Part shown: positions 14,620-32,064 of the stretch, in pieces | Position numbering within the stretch: position 1 is the first letter of the stretch | How the letters are laid out: each line of letters begins with the position of its first letter | Virus record (IMG/VR): IMGVR_UViG_3300037294_000399 | Span: 1 to 64,000 of that record | Length of the DNA: 64,000 nucleotides | Direction: 5' to 3' (one strand) | Source: a virus | Program-made: the position numbers and the translations under genes | The notes under the pieces: generated by a model | Database searches by the model: none | Seen by the model: the letters and a program-made list of their open reading frames with translations, nothing else | Told to the model about the DNA's origin: nothing

Positions 14620-15813
14620 ATGAAACAAATAACACACGAATACTTAGTAGAAAATGGTTTAATACTTTTTGAAACCATCGTTGGTTCACAAGCATACGGT
14701 ACACAAACTCCAACATCAGACATCGATAAAAAATTTGTCTATATATTACCTATGGATTCAATTTTAGGTACTGGTTATGTTGAACAAATAAATGTAGATA
14801 AAGATTACGTTGGTTGGGAGATTAGACGTTTCCTAGAACTTATGGGTTCAAACAATCCAACGGTTCTTGAACTTCTTAATAGCCCAGAAGATTGTATTGT
14901 ATCAAAACATGAGCTGTTTGACCTTATTCTTGCACACAAAGAAGATTTTATTACAAAAATTTGTAAAGATTCATTCGGTGGGTATGCAAGACAACAAATC
15001 AAGAAAGCCAAAGGATTGAATAAAAAACAAAACTGGGAAAAAGATAAAGTAACTCGAAAAGATTTACTAGATTTTTGTTACATTGTTGATGGTGAAAAAA
15101 CTATCCCATGGAAATCTTGGAATTGTGATAAATATGATGAAAAGTATATTGGTGCTGTTAATCTACCTAACGCTAGAGATGTATATGCATTATTTTATGA
15201 TAGTGTTGCAGAAATGTTACAGTCTGAAAAATATGCTGAAGATTTAAGACAAGTTTATAAAGAAACCCTTAAAAAAGCTGGTAAACCTATGGGTCACCGT
15301 TATAAAGGGTTGGTTAAAACAGGTGAAGGAGCAAACGCTGCTGAATCAAATCAATTACGTCTTTCATCAATACCAAAAGGTGAAAAAAGTATCTGTAATT
15401 TAGTTTACAATAAAGATGCTTACACCACACATTGTAAAGACTACAAAGAGTATCAAGAATGGTTAGAAAACCGTAACGAAACTCGTTATGTTGAAACACA
15501 GGAACATGGACAACGAATTGATGGTAAAAATATGATGCATTGTATTAGACTTATTCGTATGGCTCAAGAAATTGGTAGAGGGGAAGGCGTTCAAGTTCGT
15601 AGACCAGATGCTGAAGAACTATTATCGATTAGACGTGGTGAAGTTGATTTAGAACAACTTATTGATATGGCTGACAAAGCTATTGAAGAAATGGACTCAA
15701 TCTTTGATAATTCAGATTTACCAAGCAAACTTAATAGTGGCATCATCGATGCTCTGTTGGTAAATATTAGAAGAGACTTTTATAACTTGCCAATATCGGC
15801 AACTAATATTTAA
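14620..15813 (+). CDS. Pol-beta-superfamily nucleotidyltransferase (YcgL/Nuc-transf type)
   Basis: GSQAYG...SDID, NPTVLELL, KNMMHCIRL. Confidence 0.8.
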   Translation: MKQITHEYLVENGLILFETIVGSQAYGTQTPTSDIDKKFVYILPMDSILGTGYVEQINVDKDYVGWEIRRFLELMGSNNPTVLELLNSPEDCIVSKHELFDLILAHKEDFITKICKDSFGGYARQQIKKAKGLNKKQNWEKDKVTRKDLLDFCYIVDGEKTIPWKSWNCDKYDEKYIGAVNLPNARDVYALFYDSVAEMLQSEKYAEDLRQVYKETLKKAGKPMGHRYKGLVKTGEGANAAESNQLRLSSIPKGEKSICNLVYNKDAYTTHCKDYKEYQEWLENRNETRYVETQEHGQRIDGKNMMHCIRLIRMAQEIGRGEGVQVRRPDAEELLSIRRGEVDLEQLIDMADKAIEEMDSIFDNSDLPSKLNSGIIDALLVNIRRDFYNLPISATNI

Positions 15814-15817
15814 AAAT

Positions 15818-16318
15818 ATGAATATATTTGACGCACCAAAAGACTGTATCAGAACCAATAGTGGTTTATACGTCAATGTTTTCGAACCAACATCAGAAAT
15901 GATACGTGTAGAAGATATCGCTCACGCATTGGCTTCAATGCCAAGGTTCGGTGGTCACCTTAACAAACACTATTCAGTAGCACAACACAGTGTCAGATGT
16001 TGTGAAATGGCTGTGAGTTTAGAGGACAAAAAAGCGGCCCTTATGCACGATGCTAGTGAAGCGTACATGTTGGACATTCCAACACCAATAAAAGCTAAAC
16101 TACCAGATTATAAAATGTATGAAGCTAGACTTATGGGGTTCATTTCAAGACATTTTGGTTTTGAGTTTCCGTTGTCTGATACTGTACATACAATTGACCG
16201 TGATATGTTATTGCTTGAGTGGGAGAATCTGGTAGTAAACGAAAACGATGAGTTTGAGTGTTGGGACCATGCCACAGCCAAAGCTAGATTTATAGAACAA
16301 TTTAATAAATTGTTTTAA
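15818..16318 (+). CDS. HD phosphohydrolase (YfdR/5'-deoxynucleotidase-like)
   Basis: IAHALA..PRFGGH, YSVAQHS, LMHDASEAY. Confidence 0.85.
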   Translation: MNIFDAPKDCIRTNSGLYVNVFEPTSEMIRVEDIAHALASMPRFGGHLNKHYSVAQHSVRCCEMAVSLEDKKAALMHDASEAYMLDIPTPIKAKLPDYKMYEARLMGFISRHFGFEFPLSDTVHTIDRDMLLLEWENLVVNENDEFECWDHATAKARFIEQFNKLF

Positions 16319-16495
16319 TTAAAAAATGGGTTGTTCTTCAATAAGAAGCTGATACTTTTGTCAGCTTCTTTACAATCATCTATAAATGAAATAACTTGTT
16401 CATCAGTTAGTTCTTCACCATGAATGTTTCCTTCTAAAATTAAATACACATATCCCATAATCAAATATACTAATTTATCCAGGAACTGTCAAGTC

Positions 16496-17233
16496 TTAAA
16501 GCATAGAAATTGCTTTGTTGATATCCTTTAACATTTGAATACAACGATTAGTCAAATAATCAGTATTTTCATCATTCATATAAGCAGTAACGTTTATTGG
16601 TTTATTTGTAAATCTAATAAATTCGTTTTCATGTGACATCCTAGAAAGAACACTAAAATATTCGGATTTAAAAATAAATTCATCTGGGTTGGTGTTGTAG
16701 GCCAAAATAAAAGGAAGTCTTAAATCTTCACGTATAACATCATTTAATAATTTCATCAATCCATCTTCAGTGTCAATATAGTCAATTTTGGCAACAATTT
16801 CGTAAAAACTTTCATAACTACCAAAATTAGCTGCTGACTCATAAGCCATAGACCAACTTTGAACTAAACTATTCGCTTTATAAACATAACGATTACCCTT
16901 TTCAAGTTCAATGGCTTGCTTGTTTTTGATAAAATAAGACATTGGAATCATTGTTCCTCTATAAGTTGTAATATTTTCTGGGACCAATATGTCTGGGTAT
17001 TGATTCATACAACCTTTTAGGTTTGATAAAGCAGAAATAAATTCCTGTGTAGTTTCTTCACCATACATATTATCGGTAAAATCTTTTATTTGCTCTATAT
17101 AATCATTTTCAGTTGGCGTATTACGCTCAGCTCCACCAAATTGGTCACCAAATAATTCATGACCGAAATTCTTAACACAAGATGTTACTTCGTTTTCATT
17201 TACGATGGATTCATATAACTTATAGATTTTCAT
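16496..17233 (-). CDS. Possible R-S-E class ADP-ribosyltransferase
   Basis: TYRG ... QSWS ... ENE in the expected order. Confidence 0.45.
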   Translation of the reverse strand: MKIYKLYESIVNENEVTSCVKNFGHELFGDQFGGAERNTPTENDYIEQIKDFTDNMYGEETTQEFISALSNLKGCMNQYPDILVPENITTYRGTMIPMSYFIKNKQAIELEKGNRYVYKANSLVQSWSMAYESAANFGSYESFYEIVAKIDYIDTEDGLMKLLNDVIREDLRLPFILAYNTNPDEFIFKSEYFSVLSRMSHENEFIRFTNKPINVTAYMNDENTDYLTNRCIQMLKDINKAISML

Positions 17234-17302
17234 AGTGTTACAGTTTATTTACTATAAATATCGAAAAAACTTGTAAAAAAACTTGACAAATCAAAATAAA
17301 TG

Positions 17303-17342
17303 TAGTATCTTTGTGTAACTTTTAGAAATAGAGGTATATTTA
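17303..17342 (+). promoter_or_regulatory. tRNA-operon promoter cassette, copy 1
   Basis: tagtatctttgtgtaacttttagaaatagaggtatattta; TAnnTTTG plus TATTTAT motif; near-identical at 18284 and 31824. Confidence 0.8.
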
Positions 17343-17364
17343 TAGACAAATAAAAACAACAACA

Positions 17365-17442
17365 ATGAAAACTTTTAACAACGCAGTAGTCCTTTTAGTC
17401 TTATGTTTACTAGTAGTAGACAGGATGGGTTATGCATGTTAA
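17365..17442 (+). CDS. Attenuator leader peptide 1 (Val/Leu/Cys): MKTFNNAVVLLVLCLLVVDRMGYAC
   Basis: 11 consecutive V/L/C codons upstream of a terminator and Cys/Leu/Val/Leu tRNAs. Confidence 0.85.
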   Translation: MKTFNNAVVLLVLCLLVVDRMGYAC

Positions 17443-17469
17443 TTAAGTAGTCAAATACGATAACAACTG

Positions 17470-17500
17470 AAACCCATCTAAGCAATTAGGTGGGTTTTTT
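17470..17500 (+). terminator. Attenuator terminator 1
   Basis: aacccatctaa-GCAA-ttaggtgggtt + T run; alternative pairing with gatgggtt 17424-17431. Confidence 0.85.
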
Positions 17501-17507
17501 GCATTAT

Positions 17508-17582
17508 GCACGTGTGGTCGAGTGGTCAAAGGCAACGGATTGCAAATCCGTAAAACCGCTGGTTCGAATCCAGCCACGTGTT
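17508..17582 (+). tRNA. tRNA-Cys(GCA)
   Basis: Cloverleaf; anticodon arm acgga-ttGCAaa-tccgt. Confidence 0.92.
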
Positions 17583-17598
17583 CAAAATAGAAAATAAG

Positions 17599-17883
17599 AT
17601 GGATACAAATGAAGTAAAAAAAGACTTATATAAGTCAAAGAACATGGCTAAATTTAGTCATTATGTAAGTGGGAATTGATACTACACAGTTGAGTTAGCT
17701 ATCGGAACATATCAATTCCCGATATTAACGGTAGAAGAATCAGAATTATATGATTCTGAAGGTAGTGTTAAATTATCCTCAGATTTAGGAACAACAACCT
17801 TTGAGGTAGAAATGAAAGGGTTAGACCTTAACAGATGGATAACAAAAGCCATAGAAAATGAAACATTTATAAAGATAGGGTAA
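17599..17883 (+). pseudogene. Hypothetical gene with internal TGA at 17677
   Basis: Open frame on both sides of a single stop. Confidence 0.55.
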
Positions 17884-17895
17884 AACCTATCATAA

Positions 17896-17979
17896 GCGGA
17901 TATGGGGGAATTGGTAGACCCGCTGGTCTTAGAAACCAGTGCTGAAATAAGCGTGCGAGTTCGAGTCTCGCTATCCGTA
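17896..17979 (+). tRNA. tRNA-Leu(TAG)
   Basis: ctggt-ctTAGaa-accag, long variable arm. Confidence 0.93.
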
Positions 17980-17985
17980 CAACAT

Positions 17986-18063
17986 GCATCTGTAACTCAG
18001 TTGGTTTAGAGTGCTTCCTTTACACGGAAGAAGTCGGGGGTTCGAGTCCCTCCAGATGCACCA
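17986..18063 (+). tRNA. tRNA-Val(TAC)
   Basis: cttcc-ttTACac-ggaag, encoded CCA. Confidence 0.95.
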
Positions 18064-18064
18064 A

Positions 18065-18145
18065 AAGATAGTTACTGCAAACAAAAAGGTTAACAATTTA
18101 TTCGCAAAATAAATCTAAGTGGTTCAATCCCACAAAACTATCTTG
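18065..18145 (+). ncRNA. tRNA-fragment element (anticodon-like GCA arm plus T-arm in a closing stem)
   Basis: aagatagtt/aactatctt stem; atttat-tcGCAaa-ataaat; gtgg-ttcaatc-ccac. Confidence 0.55.
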
Positions 18146-18150
18146 AATTT

Positions 18151-18235
18151 GGCCGAGTGGTGGAACGGTATACACACTAGACTTAAAATCTAGCGGTCCG
18201 AAAGGGCCTTGCGGGTTCGAATCCCGCCTCGGCTA
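18151..18235 (+). tRNA. tRNA-Leu(TAA)
   Basis: ctaga-ctTAAaa-tctag, long variable arm. Confidence 0.93.
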
Positions 18236-18283
18236 CAATAAAATAAAAAAAACACAAAAAGACTTGCTTTTTTAAAATAAATG

Positions 18284-18323
18284 TAGTACCTTTGTGTAAC
18301 TTTTAGAAATAAGAGTATATTTA
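18284..18323 (+). promoter_or_regulatory. tRNA-operon promoter cassette, copy 2
   Basis: tagtacctttgtgtaacttttagaaataagagtatattta. Confidence 0.8.
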
Positions 18324-18364
18324 TTAAACAACAAAGGGGAAACCCACATTAAAAAATAGAAACA

Positions 18365-18454
18365 ATGAAAAAAAATAACAACATATTTGATTTTGCATTT
18401 TTTGCTGCCGAGGCTGATGAAAGCTTGGGAAGGTCATCTATTGTCATAAGTTAA
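18365..18454 (+). CDS. Attenuator leader peptide 2 (Phe/Asp/Ala/Glu): MKKNNNIFDFAFFAAEADESLGRSSIVIS
   Basis: 12 consecutive F/D/A/E codons upstream of a terminator and Phe/Glu/Asp/Ala tRNAs. Confidence 0.85.
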   Translation: MKKNNNIFDFAFFAAEADESLGRSSIVIS

Positions 18455-18477
18455 TGTAAATCATTAAACGAATCGAT

Positions 18478-18512
18478 AAAAGCTCTGACCTAAAAATCAG
18501 AGCTTTTTTTTT
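18478..18512 (+). terminator. Attenuator terminator 2
   Basis: aaaagctctga...tcagagctttt + T run; alternative pairing aggtca 18431-18436 with tgacct 18486-18491. Confidence 0.8.
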
Positions 18513-18596
18513 GTTTAAAAAATAAATAAAAAAAAAATGTAAAAAGTTTGGATGTTTAAAAAATATTTCATACCTTTGCAGAGTCAAAATAGACAA

Positions 18597-18623
18597 GGTA
18601 CCTTAGCTCAGTTGGTAGAGCAA
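18597..18623 (+). pseudogene. 5' half of interrupted tRNA-Phe
   Basis: ggtaccttagctcagttggtagagcaa, matching the intact tRNA-Phe at 21416. Confidence 0.8.
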
Positions 18624-18635
18624 GTTTAAAATAAT

Positions 18636-18709
18636 GGACTTCTGGTGTAAATGGTGTGTCATGCTAGTCTGAAGAACTAGAGGTTTCGGTTCGAGTCCGA
18701 GGGAGTCCA
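18636..18709 (+). tRNA. tRNA-Phe(GAA), divergent copy carried by the insertion
   Basis: ctagt-ctGAAga-actag; acceptor ggacttc/ggagtcc. Confidence 0.8.
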
Positions 18710-18789
18710 CAGATAACTTTTTGTAGAACATAATACAAAGTTTTTAGAGCTTTTAGATATAATTAGATATTTATATAAAAACGTAAATT

Positions 18790-19281
18790 ATGTTATTAGA
18801 AGAATTAGTAAAAAAGGGGTTGAATAATACTGAAATAGGTGAAATTTTAGGTATACATAGAACAACAGTTGCAAAGCAAATAAAAAAAGCTGGCATTGAA
18901 CGTGAAATATCAGATACTTGTGTTATTTGTAAAAGTAAAACAAAATCAACTAGAAAAAGATGTGATAGTTGTAACACTAAAATTAGAAGATACAGGGCAA
19001 AAAAAGCGAGTGTTCAATATTTGGGCGGTAAATGTAAAAAATGTGGTTGGAGTGGAAATTTAGCTGGTTATGATTTTCACCATCTAGACCCAGAAAAAAA
19101 AGATTTTAAACCAAGTGCTAATGAATTAGCAAATAAATCTTGGATTAAAGTAAAAGAGGAATTAGATAAATGTGAATTATTATGTGCAATATGTCATAGA
19201 TTAGAACATAATGATTATGAAAATAAAATATTTTTAAAAATAGCTGATTCAGAAAGTGATGATTTAATTTTTAAAAATTAA
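18790..19281 (+). CDS. HNH endonuclease with N-terminal HTH
   Basis: LGGKCKKCG...DFHHLDP...KCELLCAICH. Confidence 0.88.
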   Translation: MLLEELVKKGLNNTEIGEILGIHRTTVAKQIKKAGIEREISDTCVICKSKTKSTRKRCDSCNTKIRRYRAKKASVQYLGGKCKKCGWSGNLAGYDFHHLDPEKKDFKPSANELANKSWIKVKEELDKCELLCAICHRLEHNDYENKIFLKIADSESDDLIFKN

Positions 19282-19293
19282 AACAAGATGCGG

Positions 19294-19323
19294 GTGTCAC
19301 TGGTTCGAATCCAGTAGGTACCA
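19294..19323 (+). pseudogene. 3' half of interrupted tRNA-Phe
   Basis: gtgtcactggttcgaatccagtaggtacca; aggtacc pairs with ggtacct at 18597. Confidence 0.8.
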
Positions 19324-19407
19324 CAAAAGACAAATAGACCACACCTAGGGTTAGTGATTTAATTAAAGGGTCTCATTCAGTATACAAGTCTGAAATTTGT
19401 CTTTCAT

Positions 19408-19482
19408 GCTGCCATCGTCTAACGGTTAGGACGCTAGGTTTTCAACCTAGAAATCGGAGTTCGATTCTCCGTGGCAGCACCA
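19408..19482 (+). tRNA. tRNA-Glu(TTC)
   Basis: ctagg-ttTTCaa-cctag, CCA. Confidence 0.95.
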
Positions 19483-19576
19483 AGGTTCGATATATGTGTT
19501 GGTTTACGAGATTTGCACATAAAAAGGTTTAACAAAGCGAAAGCTACAGCTTTTTAAGAACCAAAATTATTACTAT

Positions 19577-19648
19577 GGCCCGTTCGTCTAACGGTTAGGA
19601 CGCTAGGTTTTCAACCTAGTAACAGGGGTTCGATTCCCCTACGGGCTA
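19577..19648 (+). tRNA. tRNA-Glu(TTC)
   Basis: ctagg-ttTTCaa-cctag. Confidence 0.93.
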
Positions 19649-19718
19649 CTATCAAGCAAGTGCTGCAACATTTGTAAGAGAAACCAATGAACAGATTGCA
19701 GTTTGGTAAGTTGGTTTT

Positions 19719-19792
19719 TGGGTGTTCGTCTAATTGGTTAAGACGCTGGGCGTTGAGGCTCGGAAATATGGGTTCAAGTCCCATACACTCTA
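19719..19792 (+). tRNA. Glu-like tRNA body with atypical 8-nt anticodon loop
   Basis: Glu-type D arm tcgtctaattggttaagacg; ctggg-cgttgagg-ctcgg; normal T arm. Confidence 0.55.
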
Positions 19793-19800
19793 CTAAAATA

Positions 19801-19875
19801 CGGATTAGAGGTCAAATGGTTAAGATGTCACCCTGTCACGGTGTTCGGAGCGGGTTCGACTCCCGTCTATTCCGC
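19801..19875 (+). tRNA. tRNA-Asp(GTC), divergent
   Basis: cacc-ctGTCac-ggtg; imperfect acceptor. Confidence 0.75.
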
Positions 19876-19932
19876 TAGCAGAAATGGTTGTTAACACCGC
19901 AAACTGAAAATGAAAGAAAGTTAACATAAACT

Positions 19933-20005
19933 GGGGATGTAGCTCAACTGGCTGAGCGTTACCTTTGCAAGGTAAAGGATGTGGGTTCGAATCTCATCAT
20001 CTCCA
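19933..20005 (+). tRNA. tRNA-Ala(TGC)
   Basis: ttacc-ttTGCaa-ggtaa; G3:U70. Confidence 0.93.
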
Positions 20006-20164
20006 CGAAACATCTAGTGAGGTAAGACTGGTAGGCTACTAATCCTAATGCTCGAAAGAGTACTGGAGAGGCTAACGAAAGAACCGAACGAGTAGTTAGT
20101 TGAAGGGATTTGCTTGAAAAATAAGTTTGGTGTAGAGCAAATTGTGTAATTAGATGTTTTAATT

Positions 20165-20241
20165 GGTCTGTTAGTAGAGTTGGTTACAATATCGCACTGT
20201 CACTGCGAAGGTCACGGGTTCGAATCCCGTACAGACCGCCA
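20165..20241 (+). tRNA. tRNA-Asp(GTC)
   Basis: tcgca-ctGTCac-tgcga, GCCA end. Confidence 0.95.
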
Positions 20242-20402
20242 GATAGCCCTCTGATGGTGCACCATCATGGAACGAAGACAGAGATTACAGATGTAGGTTG
20301 AAATAAAAAATACTTTCGGGTACACTTACATGTTGGCGTGGACGCTCTCCGAATCGTAGGTCGGCACAGTTGTAACTCTGGGGGTATTACAAAAGTTACA
20401 TT

Positions 20403-20476
20403 GGGGGATTAGCTCAGCTGGCTAGAGCACTTGCCTTGCACGCAAGGGGTCATCGGTTCGACTCCGATATCCTCCA
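20403..20476 (+). tRNA. tRNA-Ala(TGC)
   Basis: cttgc-ctTGCac-gcaag; G3:U70. Confidence 0.95.
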
Positions 20477-20479
20477 CAA

Positions 20480-20608
20480 CGATGTTGTTGGTGAGTATTC
20501 CGTTCGATTCGGATTTGGTCTTGGTGGCTGTGTGGTTCAAGTCCACGTTAAATAATAGGCAACACAATAGTAGGCATCCGCTCAAGGGTTCGACTCCCTT
20601 AACATCGA
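20480..20608 (+). ncRNA. tRNA-like RNA with three T-loop hairpins
   Basis: Acceptor-like cgatgtt/aacatcg; tccg-ttcgatt-cgga, gtgg-ttcaagt-ccac, aaggg-ttcgact-ccctt. Confidence 0.6.
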
Positions 20609-20613
20609 CAAAT

Positions 20614-20686
20614 TGGGGGATACTTTAATTGGTTAGAAGGCCACCTAGACGGGTGGTAGCGTAGGGTTCGAAACCCTCTCCCTCAA
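20614..20686 (+). tRNA. tRNA-like gene with non-canonical anticodon loop (undetermined)
   Basis: Acceptor tggggga/tccctca and T arm present; ccacc-tagacg-ggtgg loop is not 7 nt. Confidence 0.55.
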
Positions 20687-21114
20687 CTAAAAATAAAAAT
20701 ATTGTTTTACTACTTGATAGTGTAAAATAAATGTAGTACATTTGTATATGAAAAGAAAAATTTTACAATATTTAGCTGATTATATTATTAAACAACTAAA
20801 AACATCTATTGGTGATGATAGAGCATTTAATTTTTACTTAGAAATGGGTATGTGGTTAGATTTTTACGCTTTAAATAGTGATATTGAACTAAATTAAAAA
20901 AAAACAGAAAAATACTTGCAAGTTTAAAAATTAGTTAGTACCTTTGTAATATAAATCGAGAGGGTGTTTGAGAGTAGTAGCTATTAGGAAAGTTCCTCCT
21001 CTTTATCGAAAGATAAATGAAACTTTGTACTGGCGGTGGTATCAAACACAAGGTCGTAAATCTCTGGGGCAGATATGTCACGGAACAAGTCCTCGGTGTG
21101 TCACTGGGGCAAAT

Positions 21115-21191
21115 GGGAGAATAGTTCAGTTGGTAGATAGTCGCTGTCTTCGGAGGGCGAAAGGTCGTTGGTTCGAGTCCAGCTTCTTCCA
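21115..21191 (+). ncRNA. Anticodon-less tRNA mimic with Ala identity
   Basis: Acceptor gggagaa/ttcttcc (G3:U70, A73); D and T arms normal; anticodon arm capped by cUUCGg. Confidence 0.65.
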
Positions 21192-21415
21192 CAATTTAAG
21201 TAGCGTTGCATATAGACCTAGGAAGCTTATGTTGATTTCTATTTAGAGTTGCCGACAACTCAAGTTCGGGGGTTTACGGTTGTACCTTAACAACTAGGTT
21301 AGAGTTCGTTAACCTTCTTCCAAGAGCAAATGACGAATTGGTTTAGTAACATTTATCCACTTCTAGAGAAAAAAAGTTACTAGGGTAAACACTTGGAATA
21401 TGTTTACCCATTAAA

Positions 21416-21488
21416 GGTACCGTAGCTCAGTTGGTAGAGCAATGGACTGAAAATCCATGTGTCACTGGTTCGAATCCAGTCGGTACCA
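21416..21488 (+). tRNA. tRNA-Phe(GAA)
   Basis: atgga-ctGAAaa-tccat. Confidence 0.95.
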
Positions 21489-21496
21489 CAAACATT

Positions 21497-21620
21497 CGGA
21501 AGGTGGCCAAATTGGTAAAGGCGGCAGTAAGTAAAAAAGGTTAACTTGTTTAAAAGTTATGTTCAGCAGAAAAACTACATTGGGAACTGCTATTTGTTGG
21601 TTCGAGTCCAGCCCTTCCGA
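21497..21620 (+). tRNA. tRNA-Pro(TGG)-like gene with a 50-nt insertion in the anticodon arm
   Basis: Acceptor cggaagg/ccttccg; stem gcagt/actgc; removing 21529-21578 leaves loop atTGGga. Confidence 0.65.
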
Positions 21621-21635
21621 CTAAAATAAAAGAGA

Positions 21636-21989
21636 GTGAAGAATGTTTTAATTATTGTTTTATTGACTGTTACATTATTTAGTTGTAAACCAGAAACTAG
21701 TAACGTTGAGGTAAAAGAAGTTCCATTAGATTCAATTTATATTGAAGTGGAAGGAAAACCAGAAACTAGTAACGTTGAAGTAAAAGAAGTTAGGTATTGG
21801 TCTTCTTCTGAAACTAAATTACCAAGAGGTGTGGTTTATAGTTACGATTGTTCAAATAGAAATAAACCGAACCAAAAAATAAAAGATAATTATGTTACGA
21901 TTAAACGAACCAATGGTTATCTTACAATAGTTAAAGATATCGATGAAGATTTATTTTTAAATATTGAAATAGATGATGTAATTGATTAA
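21636..21989 (+). CDS. Lipoprotein with an internal 12-aa duplication
   Basis: Lipobox LFSC; KPETSNVEVKEV twice. Confidence 0.7.
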   Translation: MKNVLIIVLLTVTLFSCKPETSNVEVKEVPLDSIYIEVEGKPETSNVEVKEVRYWSSSETKLPRGVVYSYDCSNRNKPNQKIKDNYVTIKRTNGYLTIVKDIDEDLFLNIEIDDVID

Positions 21990-22180
21990 CAGAAGAGTGA
22001 GCAGCTATAGCCAAGTTGGAACCAGAACCAGCGTTTAGGTCAAAAATACTGGGCTTGCGACTTCTAAATAAAGTCAGAGTGCCCTCAACACTATAATAAA
22101 AGGGGTTTGATAAACCATGTGAGAAATTGCATGAGTTATTACTAGACATTGAAAGCTTATTTCAGCAACAAAAAATCTAT

Positions 22181-22260
22181 AGCCTGTTAAGCTCGTGATA
22201 TGGGTTCGAATCCCATACTGTCCGATATTACTGGGCGGTTAGCTTAATGGTTAGAGCACG
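22181..22260 (+). tRNA. Circularly permuted tRNA-Asn(GTT)
   Basis: 3' part (anticodon loop ctGTTaa, T arm, actgtcc) at 22181-22225 precedes 5' part (gggcggt, D arm, cg) at 22232-22260; joining gives the stem cgagc/gctcg. Confidence 0.75.
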
Positions 22261-22291
22261 AAAAGAAAAAAGTTAAGCTTGTTGTCTAAAT

Positions 22292-22409
22292 ATGAGGGTG
22301 GCTTATTGGAAGAGCACTCCCCCTAAATACGTGTGTAAGGTTCGATTCCTTTTTGGTTTGGAAGCATGGCGTATCGGGAGTTGCGTGGGTTCGAATCCCA
22401 CCCCTTGTA
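22292..22409 (+). ncRNA. tRNA-like RNA with a structured insertion replacing the anticodon loop
   Basis: Acceptor atgaggg/cccttgt; stem ctccc/gggag encloses about 54 nt containing an extra T-loop hairpin aagg-ttcgatt-cctt. Confidence 0.55.
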
Positions 22410-22726
22410 CTAGAACAAACTCAAGTAGTTTAGAGGTGGCTCCCTTTCCCACATTTGGGATATGTAGAAAAAGAGCTGTGGCTGACCACGGGCATCTAAT
22501 TGGGTTAAATACTCAATGATACAGGGGGCGAAGTTAGACGAAAGGTTTCTAGAATCGAGGTATGGGTATTCCCTTGAGTCCCTGTTCTTCTAGTTTTTTG
22601 TTTGTTTTAGTAAAAACAAACTGGTGGACAGTCAGATTGTTAATTCCAATCGACCCAAAAAAAATGACGTTATCATTTGGTAGTGTCATTTTTTATTTGT
22701 ACCTTTGTAATCTAAAAATAAAAGAA

Positions 22727-23200
22727 ATGACATTAAATTATCAATTAGGATTGTATGTTGGTGAATATATAGTAGCATTGCGTTTGCCAACGTTAAGTAC
22801 TGACATGTTAAAAACTAGAACAATCATTGATGTGTCACCAGAAGAAACAGCTGAGTGGGAAGTGTTGGATGCCCAATATGGTCCAATATATATTAGCGAT
22901 AAAGACCCAGATAAAGAAGCTAAAGAAGAAGCTAGAACTAGGATTTTTTATGAAAATCGTAAATGGTATCATAAGTTAGAAGAAAAATATCTACCAGAAA
23001 CTATAAAAGTACAAGTTCCTAGAGTTGTACCAACTAACATGAAGGAATTTACCAAAGGAATTGAGGATACTTTATGGGATAGTGATTTATCACATTATAG
23101 AATTAATGAAGGTTATTTCGAGCAAACATCTAAGTGTGCATGGTGTTCTTATATTATTTTAACAAGACACATAGAAAAAATTCCAGAAAAATTTGCATAA
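22727..23200 (+). CDS. Hypothetical protein
   Basis: ATG downstream of TACCTTTG promoter. Confidence 0.7.
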   Translation: MTLNYQLGLYVGEYIVALRLPTLSTDMLKTRTIIDVSPEETAEWEVLDAQYGPIYISDKDPDKEAKEEARTRIFYENRKWYHKLEEKYLPETIKVQVPRVVPTNMKEFTKGIEDTLWDSDLSHYRINEGYFEQTSKCAWCSYIILTRHIEKIPEKFA

Positions 23201-23259
23201 TTTAAATATTATTCATACCTTTGTACTCAACAAGTAAAAAAAACTTAAAAAAATAAAAA

Positions 23260-23976
23260 ATGGGATTAAAAGATTTATTTATCGTTAGTGATGAAAAACC
23301 TATCGATAAACCAGTACAAGAACCTGTGAAACAATCTGCTCCAAGCACGACAAAGTTTCCTAGTTCTACACCTAAAACGGAAGAAACGACTTCAAATCCG
23401 TTTAGTTCATTCGGTTTTGGTAGTTCACCAACACCTACTTATCAAGCTGCAACTGTAAGCAATGAAGTATTAGCTAAAACCTTAGAAATGTATGAAGCTG
23501 GTTTTGATTCCCTTAACCAACCAGGATACGACTTCTATGAGTTTTTCAAAACTGTAATGGCTGGTGGTGCTGACAACCCAGCAATCTACGGTATGGCTTT
23601 CGGTATGGGTAGTGCAATGGATAAAACTATTACCAAAGACAAATTATTGATGCAGTCTGAATTTTATATTACTGAAATAAACAAAGTTTACAATGACTAT
23701 GTTGCTAAAGGTAATGGTAAAAGACAAGAAGTTATCAACCAAAAGAATCATGAAAACGAATCATTATTAGGTGAATTGAATTTAATGAGACAACAATTAG
23801 AACAACTTCAAGTTCAAATTTCTGACCGTGAAAACAAACTATCTGTAATTGATAGCAAATATGGTCCAATCTTAAATGAAGTTGAAACTAAAATTACCGC
23901 TAATGATTTAGCAAAACAAAAGATAGTTAGTTCTATCGAACAAGTTAAAAACGGAATTATTAATAATTTAAAATAA
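23260..23976 (+). CDS. Coiled-coil protein (transporter-associated operon)
   Basis: LNQPGYDFYEF motif, C-terminal heptads. Confidence 0.75.
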   Translation: MGLKDLFIVSDEKPIDKPVQEPVKQSAPSTTKFPSSTPKTEETTSNPFSSFGFGSSPTPTYQAATVSNEVLAKTLEMYEAGFDSLNQPGYDFYEFFKTVMAGGADNPAIYGMAFGMGSAMDKTITKDKLLMQSEFYITEINKVYNDYVAKGNGKRQEVINQKNHENESLLGELNLMRQQLEQLQVQISDRENKLSVIDSKYGPILNEVETKITANDLAKQKIVSSIEQVKNGIINNLK

Positions 23977-23987
23977 AAAAAAGAGAT

Positions 23988-25118
23988 ATGCAAACTCAAA
24001 CTCAAACAAGGACATCTACTTTAAATGCAAATTTATCGGAGTTGCCAATTTTAAAACACTTTAACCAAAACGAAATCTCAACCAAAGTTGATACGTTTAG
24101 AAAAGGTGAGAAAAACATGTTCTGGTTCTTTAAATTAGCTGCACTTATTGGTGTTGGTTATTTAACTTGGACATATGTGTTACCGCCAGTATTCCAAGCA
24201 ATTGGACAAATGTTAGCAATTGCGGCTACCGCAGTAATGATTGTTGCGGGTGTTATTATGGCCCCAGTAATTGTTAAAGGTATTCGTTTACTTACTAGAG
24301 CGATTCACAAATCACTTATTAAGTATGACCCATTTGCTCAGTTAGAAATTGAAAGACAAAAAATGCTTGTGAATCAAACAACATTCAGAGTTGCTAAAGG
24401 GAACATTGTTCAATTAAAACAAGAAATGGAAATTGAAGCTGATAGGTCACAAAAAGAAGCTGAAAGTGGTCAAACAAGAGTAATCGCTTTGCAAGGTAAA
24501 GCTGAGAAGTTAAAATTTTCCATGGATGAAATGATTAAATCACAAGGTGTTGCTGCTAAAGGTGAAGATGAGTATGTTAACATGGCTGCTGAATTACAAA
24601 AAGTACTTGCAGAAGCACAACGTGTTGCTAACAAATACAACCAATCAAAAAACTTCGTTCAAAAGTACGGTACTCGTGCTAATGTAATGAAAAAAATGGG
24701 TCAAAAATTAACCCTTGTTGAAACTGCGATGGATATTAAAATCCAAGACTTTGATGCAACTATTGATATGTTGAAAAAAGACTACGAGTTCGGTCAAAAA
24801 TCTAATGCTGCAACAACTGCCGCTAAGTCTGCAATGGGCTTCACAAAAGGCTGGGAGTTTGATTATGCCTTGGATGTTGTTACATCTACGATTGCTGCTG
24901 ATATCGCAATCACGGCTGGTAACTTGAAAGATATTGAAAGTATTACAAGCAACTACACGTTAGATTCTGACGAGTTGTATGCTAACTTGAATGCAGTTGC
25001 TGATAAAATTAAAATTGGTACTGATATCATTCCAGATGCTAGTCAGTATTCAAACCCAGAGTACACTTTGTCATCAAGTGACAAATTAAAATCTGGTGGA
25101 TTTGGTGACATGTTCTAA
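23988..25118 (+). CDS. Membrane-anchored coiled-coil protein (PspA-like architecture)
   Basis: Two TM helices followed by long coiled coil. Confidence 0.7.
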   Translation: MQTQTQTRTSTLNANLSELPILKHFNQNEISTKVDTFRKGEKNMFWFFKLAALIGVGYLTWTYVLPPVFQAIGQMLAIAATAVMIVAGVIMAPVIVKGIRLLTRAIHKSLIKYDPFAQLEIERQKMLVNQTTFRVAKGNIVQLKQEMEIEADRSQKEAESGQTRVIALQGKAEKLKFSMDEMIKSQGVAAKGEDEYVNMAAELQKVLAEAQRVANKYNQSKNFVQKYGTRANVMKKMGQKLTLVETAMDIKIQDFDATIDMLKKDYEFGQKSNAATTAAKSAMGFTKGWEFDYALDVVTSTIAADIAITAGNLKDIESITSNYTLDSDELYANLNAVADKIKIGTDIIPDASQYSNPEYTLSSSDKLKSGGFGDMF

Positions 25119-25384
25119 GAAATATTAGATAAAAAACTGTTCGAGTAGCTATTGCGTCTTATCAACCGATTGTAAAGTAGTGGACAAAATATATACGGGA
25201 TTGCTGAGCCTAAATGAGTAAGAAGGAAGTCATAAGAGTTTTAAACCGATAAGGGTAGTTTCTCCGATGGCGAAAAAAAAAAAAGAAAAAAAAAATGACA
25301 AAATGTTTGGTAGATTAAAAAAGAATATGTACCTTTGTCATGTTAAATTAAATAAAGTAAATTTTATAAACTAAAAATAAACAA

Positions 25385-27199
25385 ATGGGAAGAATTTTAA
25401 AACAAGCTAAATTAACAACTTTAGCTGAAAGTGTAATCGTAGCGTTAGGTGTAATCTTAATCTGTGGAATCGTTTATATGGTATCTCCTGGGTTACGAGT
25501 TGAAGTTTCAAAACAATTAACTGGTCTAGAATTAAATAGTGACGAGTTAAACAATGTGACGAGTGGTGCTAAATTACCGTTACCATCTACACAACCATCT
25601 ACCGCTGTTGCGAATCAAGGACTTATTCGTATTGCAGAATATGCTTGGAATGGTAACTCTGGTATGATTGTAGCAAATGGTGGACCACGTACAACACAAG
25701 GGTCTCTTATGGAAGCTGCTGGTGTTAACCTTGAAATCGTAAGACAAGATATGGTTGGTGGGTTACGTGATATGCAAATAAAATTCGTTGAAGAATATGA
25801 TAAAGGTTTTGCTTATCCAAAATCAGACAAATCAGCTTGGGGTGTTAGTATAATGGGTGACGGTGTTCCGTTCTATATTACTACAACACAAAAAGCGTTA
25901 GATGAAAAGTTTGGTAAAAACAAATATCATGTACAAGTTATCGGTGCTTACGGATTATCTTATGGTGAGGATAAATTAATTGGTCCAAAAATTTGGAAAG
26001 AAAACCCACAATCAATGAGAGGTGCTGTAGTTTCTTCTGTAATTGGTGATGGTGACTGGGTTGTTGCGTGTAACTATGCGTTTGCTAATAAAGTACCAGT
26101 AAATCCAGACCCAACAACTTACGATGCAGATGCCTTGAATTTTTTCCCATCACAAGACGATGACTACATCAACTCAGTTAAAGAATTAATCAAATCTCAA
26201 AAAACAGGGTTTATAGTTCCTTTGAAAGAAGTTAAAGATGGTAAATTAACTGGTAAGACAGTAAATAGAAAAATTGATGGTGCAACTACTTGGACTCCTG
26301 GTGATAAGATGGCGTTTGATGCGTTGACTGGGTTTACCGATGTAGTTTCAACTAAAGAGTTCGTTAACCAAATGGCTACTACTTTAGTAGTGATTAAAGA
26401 GTGGGCTTTGCAACATGAAAAAGAAGTTGTGTCTATCTTAAAACAAACTTATACTGCAACTAATCAAATTAAGTTATATGATGAATGGGCTGTAAAAGCT
26501 TCTGAAGCCGTAGCTAAAACTTATGACTTTGAAACACCAGCTTATTGGTATAAAATGTTTAAAGGTCAAAAAGGTACTAAAGATGGTTTAGATTATAATA
26601 TTGGTGGTACACGTGTCTTCAATTATGCTGATGCTATGCAATATTACGGAATTACTGATGGTAACAACCGATACAAAGCAGTTTACAATCAAATCTCTAC
26701 TTATTTGACTGACTTGAACCCAATGGGTTTCAATGAATCAAACCCTAATGGTGTAGTAGCTTATGAAGATGCAGTTAACTTATATTTCTTAAAAAGTGTT
26801 ACCGATGTTGCGGTAGGTAAAGCTGAAAAAATTAACTACGATGGTAATAAGACTAAAGTATTAGCTAGTGGTCAATGGAACATAAACTTTGCAACTGCAA
26901 GTACGTCAATTCAAGGTTCGGATAAAGACTTAGAGGCCATATACAACTTATTAATGCAAGCTGAACAAGCCAAATTGAAAATTGTTGGTCATACCGATAA
27001 CGTAGGTGATTCTGGTTCTAATCTAACATTATCAAAAGGTCGTGCTAATTCAGTTGTTGAGTGCTTAATTAATAGAGGTATTTCTAAAAATCGTTTCCAA
27101 TTGGTTGATGGTAAAGGTGATGCTTCTCCAATTGCGACTAATGCAACTCCAGCTGGTAAAGCTAAGAACAGACGTGTGGAAATCACATTGTTAGACTAA
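25385..27199 (+). CDS. ABC substrate-binding protein (SsuA/TauA-like) with C-terminal OmpA domain
   Basis: N-terminal TM; GHTDNVG...NLTLSKGRA...NRRVEI. Confidence 0.85.
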   Translation: MGRILKQAKLTTLAESVIVALGVILICGIVYMVSPGLRVEVSKQLTGLELNSDELNNVTSGAKLPLPSTQPSTAVANQGLIRIAEYAWNGNSGMIVANGGPRTTQGSLMEAAGVNLEIVRQDMVGGLRDMQIKFVEEYDKGFAYPKSDKSAWGVSIMGDGVPFYITTTQKALDEKFGKNKYHVQVIGAYGLSYGEDKLIGPKIWKENPQSMRGAVVSSVIGDGDWVVACNYAFANKVPVNPDPTTYDADALNFFPSQDDDYINSVKELIKSQKTGFIVPLKEVKDGKLTGKTVNRKIDGATTWTPGDKMAFDALTGFTDVVSTKEFVNQMATTLVVIKEWALQHEKEVVSILKQTYTATNQIKLYDEWAVKASEAVAKTYDFETPAYWYKMFKGQKGTKDGLDYNIGGTRVFNYADAMQYYGITDGNNRYKAVYNQISTYLTDLNPMGFNESNPNGVVAYEDAVNLYFLKSVTDVAVGKAEKINYDGNKTKVLASGQWNINFATASTSIQGSDKDLEAIYNLLMQAEQAKLKIVGHTDNVGDSGSNLTLSKGRANSVVECLINRGISKNRFQLVDGKGDASPIATNATPAGKAKNRRVEITLLD

Positions 27200-27312
27200 G
27201 AATAAATATAAATTAAAAATCCTCAGAGAAATCTGGGGATTTTTTTTGTAAAAAGATTTGGAAGTTCGAATTAAATTTCGTACCTTTGTCTTATAAATTT
27301 TAAAACAATAAA

Positions 27313-28083
27313 ATGAAAAGATTATTTAAACCGTTTGAGCGACTTAAAGGTTCTAGTACAACAACAATACTAGTTTCTTGGTTAGTTATCTTATTTGTGT
27401 TTTGGGGTGTAAATAGCTTAGGAACAACAAACATGTTCCCAACACCAAAACAAGTACTACATGGATTACAAAATTTATGGTGGGAAGGTCTCATTGTTCA
27501 TTTGGGTAGTTCAATTGCGTTGTGTGGTCAAGCAGTATTTATTTCAATAGTGATTTCATTACTATTTGCTTATACGTCAGCAATTCCATTTTTTAAACCA
27601 GTAGGTACCTTTATATCTAAGCTTAGATATTTGCCATTGACGGGTATTGCGTTTTATTTAGCTATAATAATTCAAGATGCTAGAAATCTTCAAGTATGGG
27701 TTCTTGTAGTGTTTATGACAACATTCTTAACTACTGGTCTTATGCAAATGATTAAAGATATACCAGAAGAAGAATTTGACCACGCTAGAACACTTGGGTG
27801 TAACAGATGGGAAACACTTTGGGAAGTTGTAATTAAAGGTCGTATTGACTACGTATTTGAGTTAGTAAGGCAAAACTTAGCTATTGTGTGGATGATGCTT
27901 GTAACTGTTGAATCTATTCTTGTAGCTGCTGGTGGGTTAGGGTTCCTAATTAAAAACAATGATAAGTTAGGTGATGCTGGTAAAGTAATTGCTTTGCAAA
28001 TAATCATAGTAGTGGTAGGGTTGTCTTTGGACTTCATCATCACAAAATTGAGAAAATTAATCTTTAGATATTCAAACTATTAA
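27313..28083 (+). CDS. ABC transporter permease (SsuC/TauC-like)
   Basis: FPTP, RYLP, EAA-like loop ARTLG, GLGFLI. Confidence 0.88.
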   Translation: MKRLFKPFERLKGSSTTTILVSWLVILFVFWGVNSLGTTNMFPTPKQVLHGLQNLWWEGLIVHLGSSIALCGQAVFISIVISLLFAYTSAIPFFKPVGTFISKLRYLPLTGIAFYLAIIIQDARNLQVWVLVVFMTTFLTTGLMQMIKDIPEEEFDHARTLGCNRWETLWEVVIKGRIDYVFELVRQNLAIVWMMLVTVESILVAAGGLGFLIKNNDKLGDAGKVIALQIIIVVVGLSLDFIITKLRKLIFRYSNY

Positions 28084-28086
28084 TAT

Positions 28087-28908
28087 ATGAGTTATAAAGC
28101 AGAACAAACGTTATTATACGTTAAGGACCTAAGTGCTGGTTATGATGGGAAGATTATCCTTAAAGATATATCATTTGAGGAAAAAGACATCGTTAGAGAA
28201 GGGGTAGAATCGACAGGGCAAATAATTGCATTTATTGGTCGCTCTGGTCGTGGTAAATCTACATTGTTTAAAACACTTACTGGTTTATTAAAGCCACTAA
28301 CTGGACAAATGTTGATATCAGATATGTCAACAGATGAAATGGATGACGCTAAAAAATTGTCTGAGGGTGATATAGGTTTTGTGGACCAAAAGTATACGCT
28401 TTTCCGTCACAAAACAATCATACAGATTTGTGAATATGCGTTGCGTAAATCAACACTTACAAAAGAGGAAAAGAAAGTGCTTATCACAGAGTACTTGACT
28501 GATTGGGGTCTTGAAGAACACAAAGATAAATATTCATGTGAGTTATCTGGTGGTCAAAGACAAAGAACAGCAATCATTGAGCAAATGCTTTCGTCTAAAC
28601 GTTTTATGATTCTAGACGAACCATTTTCTGGTTTAGATGTTGGGAATATTGAGAAAGTAAAAGAGTCTTTCAATCGAATTAGCGCTACCAACGAATATAA
28701 TACGATTATTTTTTCAACACATGATTTACGTCTTGCTGCTGAATTGGCTGATAGTATTTACATCGTTGGTTTTCCAGAAGGCACTACTGATTATTCTACT
28801 ATCGTTGGTCACTACGACTTAAAAAAACTAGGATTAGCTTGGCAACCATATGGTGATGGACATACAAGGTTAGTTGAAGAAATGAAACAATTGTTATTGC
28901 ATTCATAA
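28087..28908 (+). CDS. ABC transporter ATPase
   Basis: GRSGRGKST, LSGGQRQR, ILDEPF, STHD. Confidence 0.93.
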   Translation: MSYKAEQTLLYVKDLSAGYDGKIILKDISFEEKDIVREGVESTGQIIAFIGRSGRGKSTLFKTLTGLLKPLTGQMLISDMSTDEMDDAKKLSEGDIGFVDQKYTLFRHKTIIQICEYALRKSTLTKEEKKVLITEYLTDWGLEEHKDKYSCELSGGQRQRTAIIEQMLSSKRFMILDEPFSGLDVGNIEKVKESFNRISATNEYNTIIFSTHDLRLAAELADSIYIVGFPEGTTDYSTIVGHYDLKKLGLAWQPYGDGHTRLVEEMKQLLLHS

Positions 28909-29025
28909 TGAATAAAGAATAAAAAACCATATATTACATCTAAAAAACACATTGAATATATTTATAGTATGTGTTAATGTTAAATTGAGTACCAAAACAT
29001 AATATTAACCTTAAACAAAGATAAA

Positions 29026-29190
29026 ATGAAAAAAATGATTCTTGTTCTTGTTGTGATAGCGTCTTTAACAGCATGTACTGGTAAAGCTAAAACACAAGAT
29101 ACTACTGCTACGGATTCGACAGCGGTAACAATTGATTCAGTTGCTACTAGTGTAGATACTACAACAGTAGATACAACTGCAACTAAATAA
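29026..29190 (+). CDS. Small Thr/Asp-rich lipoprotein
   Basis: MKKMILVLVVIASLTAC lipobox; DTT/DST/DSV repeats. Confidence 0.75.
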   Translation: MKKMILVLVVIASLTACTGKAKTQDTTATDSTAVTIDSVATSVDTTTVDTTATK

Positions 29191-29333
29191 TTATGAGTGG
29201 GGCATTAATTTGCCCCTCTTATACTAGGAAAAATAAGACCCATCATGTGTTTAAAAGCACTAGGTCACGACTAAATATAATACTATGGACAGTGAGAGGA
29301 ACAGTAACGAGAAAAGTGATGGCGACAGTCTGC

Positions 29334-30251
29334 CTAATTTATTAAACCCTTAAATAATACATCAATATCATTAATTTTATTAAATTTAACCCTAATTAAT
29401 TTAGGGTTTTCTTTTTTATTACAATATAAGGTCTTAATTTTATCTCGTTTTTTAACCATTGATAAATTACTATTTTTATGAGTAAATACGCTTATTTCTT
29501 TAAAGTGTTGCTCTCCGTCATATTCAATGCAAATATCGTAATCTGGTAAGTAAAAGTCAAAAGGTAATGGTCTAATATCCCTACAATCTTTAAACTTATG
29601 TTGTTTAACATATTTTATGTTATGCTTATCTAACCATTGTTTAATTGTACGTTCACCTTTAGATTCATTACACATAGGACAACCATTTTTATTTGATATG
29701 TGGTCATTAGGTGTTTGTTCGAATCCACCATGTTTAGGGCAGACGATTCTCACTTTCTTATTAGTTTTTTCGTATGTTACTTTTGAGTAATCGTAAAATA
29801 AACCATGCACATTAGTGGCTTTATTAATAAAATACTCAGTTGACTTGGTTCTACCATTGGCTCTTGTTATTTGTCCACACAATTGACAACCATAACCAAA
29901 TAAATGATTTGATGCTGTTTGTTCAAATTGCCCATGTTCTGGGCATGTTATCTTAATTAGTTCATTAGATTTATTAAACGAAACTAATTTGTAACAATAT
30001 TTGTTATTATGTTTTTCATTTGCTTTAGATATAAAATCAGTTAGTGTTAATTTAGTACCACCATTACATTTTGGACAACTATGATTCCTAACATGACTAT
30101 CTGGTGTTTGTTCAAACTCACCATGATTAGGGCAAATTATTGTTACTTTATTATGTGGTCCTTCATAGGTTACTTTTGAGTAATCATACTTATCACCATG
30201 AGTATTTATAGCTCTGTCGATAAATTTTGTTTGTTTTAATTCTTGTTTCAT
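29334..30251 (-). CDS. Homing endonuclease: DUF723-like zinc repeats plus Vsr/DUF559-like nuclease
   Basis: Repeated YDYSKV...ICPxHGxFxQ; LPFDFYLP...IEYDGEQH. Confidence 0.85.
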   Translation of the reverse strand: MKQELKQTKFIDRAINTHGDKYDYSKVTYEGPHNKVTIICPNHGEFEQTPDSHVRNHSCPKCNGGTKLTLTDFISKANEKHNNKYCYKLVSFNKSNELIKITCPEHGQFEQTASNHLFGYGCQLCGQITRANGRTKSTEYFINKATNVHGLFYDYSKVTYEKTNKKVRIVCPKHGGFEQTPNDHISNKNGCPMCNESKGERTIKQWLDKHNIKYVKQHKFKDCRDIRPLPFDFYLPDYDICIEYDGEQHFKEISVFTHKNSNLSMVKKRDKIKTLYCNKKENPKLIRVKFNKINDIDVLFKGLIN

Positions 30252-30359
30252 ATGTTTCTGTATAATAAATATCTAGGTTTTCGATAAAAACCGTTTCTAA
30301 CACAAAATAGTTTCGAAATATTTGCATTTTAATTAAATTTTTAGTACCTTTGCTTATAA

Positions 30360-30875: not shown

Positions 30876-30926
30876 TCTTTATATTTATATTAAAATAAGA
30901 TAGTGTAAATTTAATTATGGATAAAA

Positions 30927-31815: not shown

Positions 31816-31823
31816 AATAAAAG

Positions 31824-31863
31824 TAGTACCTTTGTGTAACTTTTAGAAATAGAGGTATATTTA
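31824..31863 (+). promoter_or_regulatory. tRNA-operon promoter cassette, copy 3
   Basis: tagtacctttgtgtaacttttagaaatagaggtatattta. Confidence 0.8.
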
Positions 31864-31897
31864 TTAGAAAAGAGGTAAAACTCACAAACAAAAAATT

Positions 31898-31999
31898 ATG
31901 AAAACAACAACGACATATCAAACGCAATATCAACCGAAGGGCGGGAAGCCTCAAGGGAAGACTGGGTATGTCATGTTTGAAGACGTGATATTAGGATAA
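31898..31999 (+). CDS. Attenuator leader peptide 3 (Lys/Thr/Tyr/Gln/Pro/Gly): MKTTTTYQTQYQPKGGKPQGKTGYVMFEDVILG
   Basis: Residues 2-24 use only K,T,Y,Q,P,G; downstream tRNAs are Pro, Gln, Tyr, Thr, Gly, Lys. Confidence 0.88.
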   Translation: MKTTTTYQTQYQPKGGKPQGKTGYVMFEDVILG

Positions 32000-32057: not shown

Positions 32058-32064
32058 ATTTTAT

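Follow-up and report, generated by a model that had tools for sequence, protein, structure and literature searches.

The window analysed here comprises the whole of positions 1 to 64,000 (64,000 nucleotides) of the IMG/VR virus record IMGVR_UViG_3300037294_000399, a contig of 96.3 kb. At 18287 begins unit 2, a candidate transcription attenuator, which consists of a promoter, a short leader open reading frame (ORF), an intrinsic terminator and, behind these, an array of tRNA genes (Table 1). Two paralogous units, 1 and 3, accompany it in the window. The leader, the terminator, the complementary hexamers AGGTCA and TGACCT, and the TACCTTTG boxes at 18287 and 18571 had been marked in an initial annotation, and all of them were found where it had placed them.

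Table 1. Features of unit 2, its sister units and the four leader families; positions are those of the window (UTR, untranslated region)
Feature	Position	Strand	Description
Promoter P1	18287-18294	+	-7 box TACCTTTG, Bacteroidota type TAnnTTTG
5' UTR cassette	18291-18324	+	34 nt; shared by all putative attenuator units
Leader ORF	18365-18454	+	29 codons, peptide MKKNNNIFDFAFFAAEADESLGRSSIVIS; 9 peptide variants among relatives
Sensing block	18386-18421	+	codons 8-19, FDFAFFAAEADE; 12 consecutive Phe/Asp/Ala/Glu codons
Composite antiterminator (predicted), 5' strands	18431-18456	+	stem P1 18431-18436 (AGGTCA), P1b 18438-18439, P2 18441-18447 (UUGUCAU), P3 18450-18456
Composite antiterminator (predicted), 3' strands	18462-18491	+	stem P3 18462-18469, P2 18472-18479, P1b 18481-18482, P1 18486-18491 (TGACCT)
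Intrinsic terminator	18478-18512	+	11-bp stem 18478-18507, 8-nt loop, 9-T run to 18512
Bypass promoter P2	18546-18578	+	TTTG, 21 nt, TACCTTTG (box at 18571); downstream of terminator
Split tRNA-Phe(GAA)	18598-19325	+	split at anticodon arm; first tRNA after leader; break points by BLAST
tRNA array	19408-20477	+	Glu 19408, Glu 19577, odd tRNA-like 19719, Asp 19802, Ala 19933, Asp 20165, Ala 20403
Sister unit 1	17306-17503	+	promoter cassette, V/L/C leader 17365-17442 MKTFNNAVVLLVLCLLVVDRMGYAC, terminator; tRNAs Cys, Leu(tag), Val, Leu(taa)
Sister unit 3	31827-32052	+	promoter cassette, T/Y/Q/P/K/G leader 31898-31999 MKTTTTYQTQYQPKGGKPQGKTGYVMFEDVILG, terminator; tRNAs Pro x2, Gln, Tyr, Thr, Gly, Lys
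Family 1			leader V/L/C; tRNAs Cys, Leu, Val
Family 2 (unit-2 family)			leader core IFDFAFFAAE[AE]D; tRNAs Phe, Glu, Asp, Ala
Family 3			leader T/Y/Q/P/K/G; tRNAs Pro, Gln, Tyr, Thr, Gly, Lys
Family 4			leader N/I/H/M/S/W/R, MRTINIHMISISNWRRNSH; tRNAs His, Trp, Ile, Met, Asn, Arg, Ser

The leader block and the tRNA genes behind it

In a six-frame translation of the 96-kb record, the 12-residue run of F, D, A and E in the unit-2 leader is the longest of its kind, the runner-up being 7 residues, and a run of 12 is expected by chance only about 0.002 times per genome. The block is thus real and lies far beyond chance. The same is true of units 1 and 3, whose leaders are the genome's longest runs of their own amino-acid sets, with 11 residues against 8 for unit 1 and 23 against 9 for unit 3.

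ARAGORN and Rfam agree on the canonical tRNA genes that the initial annotation had named downstream, namely Phe (18636), Glu (19408 and 19577), Asp (19802 and 20165), Ala (19933 and 20403) and a second Phe (21416). The Phe gene at 18636 is real but is not the first of the array, as it lies inside an inserted cassette that splits an earlier tRNA-Phe(GAA) gene. The insert, 670 bp long (18624-19293) and replacing 16 nt, carries the divergent tRNA-Phe(GAA) at 18636-18710, which is identical to the displaced gene at 48 of 75 positions, together with an ORF (18790-19281) that has HNH-like Cys/His motifs and for which Pfam gives only weak helix-turn-helix matches. The homologue of the split gene is intact in the near-twin contig L004 (679-752).

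Other genes of the array are tRNA-like. The gene at 20614-20687 has an 8-nt anticodon loop (ARAGORN anticodon 'agac') and stands at the same place in five lineages, including L004 (2880-2953); it was not reported by the Rfam tRNA model. The gene at 19719-19793 has a 6-nt loop in the window, and its counterpart in L004 reads as a 75-nt 'Ser(tga)' without the long variable arm.

Leader families and their matched tRNA sets

From the window and related phage contigs, 49 distinct units were assembled, 11 of them variants of unit 2 (family 2). The units belong to four families (Table 1), the fourth of which is seen in relatives and is absent from the window's incomplete record; all four are present on one 233-kb contig. 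The codon sets of the four families are disjoint and jointly cover the 20 amino acids. Canonical downstream tRNAs belong to the set of their own leader in 296 of 311 cases, so that a table of leaders against tRNAs is nearly block-diagonal, and the in-set share is 98%, 88%, 97% and 97% for families 1 to 4, respectively (61 of 69 for family 2). The match extends to the codon level: amino acids with two codon boxes use both of them in the leader and have both isoacceptor types in the array, as is found for Leu (CTN and TTR codons, tag and taa anticodons), Arg (AGA and CGY, tct and acg), Ser (TCG and AGT, tga and gct) and Gly (GGC and GGG, acc and tcc). An intrinsic terminator is present in all 49 units, 23-35 nt past the stop codon.

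Comparison of the leaders supports the view that the block evolves as a translated sequence selected for its composition. In the family-2 block, the extra states observed at codon positions 1, 2 and 3 number 4, 3 and 13, respectively, and 11 synonymous codon variants were counted against 6 amino-acid variants. Across families, 31 of 36 replacements in the block remained within the leader's own set, compared with 25% expected from single-base changes (binomial p 3e-14), in a test that ignores shared ancestry and in which some of the cases are possibly one-codon shifts. Residues are also reshuffled inside one set among relatives, for example NIHMISISNW, NMHIISISNW and NIHMNSINIW, and this permutation within a set therefore points to selection on composition and not on the peptide sequence. 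The sister units, the fourth family, the partition of the 20 amino acids and the evolution of the block thus provide strong comparative evidence for the initial proposal of a leader-peptide attenuator that names the tRNAs behind it. A further proposal, that the NNN at residues 4-6 of the leader may relate to a permuted tRNA-Asn at 22181, is not supported: relatives carry RTLTN, KTVNN or RTITN at this place, leaders of families 1, 2 and 4 alike have an N at position 5-6, and all 20 of the 20 canonical Asn tRNAs are located behind family-4 leaders.

The units are also tied together by their 5' UTR. An exact 22-mer within the cassette occurs at only three sites in the 96-kb record (17309, 18290 and 31830), and each copy heads a short ORF, a terminator and a tRNA array. 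Using degenerate 5' UTR motif scans, the cassette was located in 7 further viral contigs and 46 metagenome stretches. The 34-nt stretch after the -7 box (also at 17310-17343 and 31831-31864) is more conserved than the leaders, in all four families and in many contigs, and has no further copy in the genome; it may serve in loading ribosomes, as a pause or as a site for a factor. A small GNRA-type hairpin, GGGGAAACCC (18336-18345), is located ~20 nt ahead of the ATG and varies with compensation between units (GGGTTAAAACCC, GAGGTAAAACTC and GGAGAAATCC).

In family-4 units (L009 at ~8620-8800, L024, L027, L061 and others), a conserved ORF of ~57 amino acids, with the motif M.ELVRKLG...GY.GEL.F.KE.G, is found between the terminator and the first tRNA. 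Judging from its position, this small protein would be co-controlled by the attenuator.

The completeness of the source record is rated at only 27% at a length of 96.3 kb, and the phage is therefore probably a giant phage. Its Bacteroidota-type promoter boxes suggest a host in the Bacteroidota. In a blastn search for cultured-phage relatives among 50,697 phage records, only tRNAs were matched, and the closest protein relatives are those of uncultured huge phages, at ~50% identity. Directly upstream of the tRNA units, the window encodes an RlaP-type nucleotidyltransferase (14620-15813; PF10127, E 5e-24), a family associated with RNA-repair pathways, and an adjoining ORF that also lies upstream of the tRNA units (the pair spans 14620-16318). 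A full RNase R/RNB protein is encoded at 61670-63652. Together, the three genes suggest a neighbourhood for RNA or tRNA upkeep.

Terminator, putative antiterminator and promoters

The terminator of unit 2 starts 26 nt past the stop codon and folds at -13.9 kcal/mol (z -5.25). The initial annotation had cautioned that the antiterminator pairing is only 6 bp long. This is correct for the two hexamers, which taken alone do not pair above chance; they are better described as part of a longer, conserved composite stem, which was found by folding the nascent transcript with the 3' arm of the terminator not yet made. In the composite fold, the stop codon (18452-18454) sits within stem P3, stem P1b is a 2-bp step between stems P1 and P2, a conserved TTGATA in the region of stem P2 stands directly before the terminator, and 7 of the 11 nt in the 5' arm of the terminator are taken up by the 3' strands. 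The predicted stability is -14.5 kcal/mol (z -4.05), and none of 200 dinucleotide shuffles was as stable.

Folding predicts this architecture for 10 of the 11 family-2 variants, where it occupies 60-80% of the terminator arm, and stem P3 differs between the window and its near-twin L004 by the exchange of a G-C for an A-U pair. When pairing was counted on the window's structure in a MAFFT alignment, 72.6% of cells were paired in the composite stem compared with 28-43% with the partners slid, the count being lowered by rows L014 and L039, which are misaligned in P2. In nascent folds with the ribosome masked, the antiterminator is predicted to form with the ribosome A site anywhere in 18386-18416, while a ribosome at the stop codon would leave only the 6-bp stem P1. 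The composite antiterminator of unit 2 is therefore conserved and, on these models, plausible, but it is not proven. A different arrangement, in which the leader segment AAAGCTTGG would mimic the terminator 5' arm and trap the 3' arm, was considered and rejected, since it fits only part of the variants and breaks down in G001 and L029.

The distal leaders of families 1, 3 and 4 each contain a stretch complementary to the 5' arm of the terminator. The cognate duplexes of leader and arm in these families average ~-14 kcal/mol, compared with -8 to -11 kcal/mol for pairs across families. For unit 1 the antiterminator duplex is calculated at -14.3 kcal/mol, a value reached by 0.8% of shuffled arms, and for unit 3 at -15.5 kcal/mol, reached by 0.2%. 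Compensatory changes are found in the duplexes of these families, for example GATGGGTT/AACCCATC versus GATGGGGG/CCCCCATC, and GAGTCGGGT/ACCCGACT versus GGTCAAGG/CCTTAGACC. An antiterminator predicted to exclude the terminator is thus clearly present in families 1, 3 and 4, and unit 2 is the weakest switch of the units.

The TAYCTTTG box, the -7 promoter element of the Bacteroidota type, occurs 40 times in the window compared with 7.6 expected, frequently directly upstream of ORF starts, and because of this abundance and placement TACCTTTG is assigned as the phage's general -7 promoter box. A copy of it lies behind the unit-2 terminator, at 18571. The concern raised in the initial annotation, that this host-type promoter would supply a basal transcript, is justified for some lineages: the predicted bypass promoter is real and conserved in the closest relatives, being present in 5 of the 11 unit-2 variants (the window, L004, L007, L044 and L071), but it is lineage-specific and absent from the other 6. 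In the window phage and its closest relatives, the attenuator would accordingly add to a basal tRNA transcript from 18571.

In 4 of the 11 unit-2 variants, the spacer between the terminator and the first tRNA is 16-21 nt long and has no promoter box. No TAnnTTTG box was found between the terminator and the first tRNA in any family-1 or family-3 unit; most of these units have 7-21 nt of room there, and units 1 and 3 of the window have 12 nt each. With no box and little room behind the terminator, the tRNAs of such units could therefore come only from readthrough. A further TACCTTTG box is found inside the array of unit 2 (20939-20946), before an odd tRNA-like gene at 21115 and the tRNA-Phe at 21416, and L004 has this box too, at 4143. 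Control by the attenuator may thus not extend to the distal tRNA-Phe (21416).

Proposed switch, rival readings and known systems

On the anatomy, the match of leaders to tRNAs, the conservation and the pattern of selection observed above, unit 2 is probably a multivalent, ribosome-mediated (leader-peptide) transcription attenuator that would control its tRNA genes. Translation of the leader, a shift of the fold on stalling and a resulting change in readthrough are inferred, as follows. The transcript would start at promoter P1 (18287), with the 29-codon leader as its first product. If the Phe/Asp/Ala/Glu block is read quickly, the ribosome would reach the stop codon (18452), where it would melt or cover stems P2 and P3, so that the terminator forms and transcription ends. 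If tRNA-Phe, -Asp, -Ala or -Glu decodes slowly, the ribosome would linger on the block, the distal leader would pair with the terminator 5' arm, and RNA polymerase would continue into the Phe, Glu, Asp and Ala tRNA genes. Since the products are the very tRNAs being tested, the switch would act as a negative-feedback gauge of decoding capacity, and the loop would hold this capacity at a set point for the four amino acids.

We hypothesize, more tentatively, that the four paralogous leaders form a complete, codon-resolved decoding gauge for all 20 amino acids, with every leader testing the isoacceptors of its own array, which would give the phage a closed-loop tRNA supply independent of the host; we regard this as possible, with slightly less than even confidence. 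Such a gauge would switch on when the host tRNA pool misfits the codon usage of the phage or is depleted, for example by host anticodon nucleases or by host shut-off.

Several results weigh against the attenuator reading of unit 2. The duplex of AGGTCA and TGACCT, at -8.8 kcal/mol, is matched by 17% of shuffled arms, and the cognate duplexes of family 2 (-9.0 kcal/mol) are no better than cross-family pairs; a comparison of the simple duplex with non-cognate pairs was likewise not significant. Covariation in the composite stem of unit 2 is not significant, with 3 pairs changing on both sides and 231 of 500 shuffles reaching the score. Stem P1 is broken in L007 (AAGTCA) and stem P2 in L071 (TTAATA). 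Behind family-2 leaders, 8 of the 69 canonical tRNAs are off-set (Met, Pro, His and Ser), and several of the tRNA-like genes behind unit 2 are odd. With promoters at 18571 and 20939, much of the expression of the array may here bypass the attenuator. Finally, in equilibrium folding with a masked ribosome the terminator wins every time, and the switch, if it operates, must therefore be kinetic. Control in classical attenuators is likewise kinetic.

Family-2 variants with both the bypass promoter and an antiterminator mismatch are L007 (13937-14085) and L071 (294-445). Their mismatches may reflect relaxed constraint once a bypass exists, although this is anecdotal.

One alternative is that the same switch senses aminoacylation, that is, amino-acid starvation, as biosynthetic operons do, and not tRNA abundance; starved cells would then make extra tRNA for some other reason, and there would be no closed feedback loop. 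The leader-peptide attenuators of trp, his and ilv respond to how much charged tRNA is available, irrespective of what causes a shortage, and the anatomy of unit 2 does not separate the two signals. More uncharged tRNA, however, would not relieve a shortage of amino acids, and both the pairing of leader codons with downstream isoacceptors and the partition of the 20 amino acids among tRNA arrays fit a test of tRNA better. We therefore consider starvation sensing unlikely.

Another alternative is a translated, tRNA-matched leader that acts post-transcriptionally, on the processing or stability of tRNA precursors, or by occluding promoter P2, with the terminator serving mainly to end the unit-1 operon. 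There is no terminator between the last tRNA of unit 1 (which ends at 18236) and promoter P1, and transcripts of unit 1 may therefore end at 18512; in addition, unit 2 has its own bypass promoter and its antiterminator is without covariation support. However, families 3 and 4 follow protein genes and not tRNA arrays, yet show the same leader-terminator design, the arm-complementary segments of families 1, 3 and 4 carry compensatory changes, and family-1 and family-3 units have no TAnnTTTG box behind the terminator. This explanation is judged quite improbable. That the short ORF and terminator are a free-standing small gene for a peptide or a small RNA, whose likeness to the tRNA set is incidental, is hardly credible, for although the unit comes with a promoter and a terminator of its own, and the tRNAs of the window have another promoter, chance is excluded by the expected ~0.002 such runs per genome, the rule holds in three units of the window and in four families elsewhere, and the permutation of residues within sets argues against a sequence-specific peptide.

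Why phages carry tRNAs, and how they time the use of these, is an open question. To our knowledge, tRNA genes are generally taken to be controlled by promoters, growth rate or repressors, and not by a translated test message. If the attenuator reading of unit 2 is correct, a leader whose codons name the tRNAs behind it would sense decoding speed directly and feed back on the supply of tRNA, and attenuation of the textbook trp/his type would extend to a new class of targets. It predicts that readthrough falls as cognate tRNAs are added. The combination of cassette, matched leader and terminator would also offer a sequence signature for regulated tRNA arrays in metagenomes, and the four families a natural set of four orthogonal switches, each specific for a group of amino acids.

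Among known leaders, those of ilvGMEDA (Ile/Val/Leu codons) and thr (Thr/Ile codons) are multivalent and, like unit 2, address several amino acids in one leader, while trpL, hisL, pheL and leuL are single-amino-acid leaders. Unit 2 shares with the enterobacterial attenuators a short leader with regulatory codons (its translation being predicted in unit 2) and an intrinsic terminator and, on its predicted folds, also a competing pairing with the 5' arm of the terminator and the feature that a ribosome at the stop codon favours termination. It differs from them in that it would regulate tRNA genes instead of enzymes, so that its output would be the sensed molecule, in that the system is phage-borne and its four paralogous leaders divide the 20 amino acids, and in that its predicted antiterminator is a composite, interrupted stem and not a single helix. 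Unit 2 has no sequence or Rfam relation to known leaders: a cmscan of 15000-35000 with E up to 1 gave only tRNAs and chance-level hits, and no match to the Rfam leader families (Phe, His, Leu, Thr and Trp) or to the T-box.

In the E. coli pheST operon, a Phe-codon attenuator with the pheM leader controls phenylalanyl-tRNA synthetase, a component of the translation apparatus; unlike unit 2, this cellular system has a synthetase as its target and responds to a single amino acid. The idea of an attenuator at the E. coli tRNA-Phe genes as a precedent proved false, as pheU and pheV have only a promoter upstream, with no leader or terminator. Full-text literature searches for leader-peptide control of tRNA genes returned no published account. 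The nearest published regulated tRNA array is the trn operon of Anabaena sp. PCC 7120, a supernumerary array, normally silent, whose expression is induced by impaired translation (PMC8421152), under the control of the protein repressor TrcR (PMC10272220). It differs from unit 2 in using a repressor instead of a codon-matched leader, and in being one array without amino-acid-specific sub-arrays.

T-box riboswitches resemble unit 2 in being termination switches that read the state of tRNA and control translation-related genes. Each is specific for one amino acid. Uncharged tRNA is bound directly by the T-box RNA, which contains no ORF and carries the conserved T-box sequence, whereas unit 2 evolves as a coding sequence.

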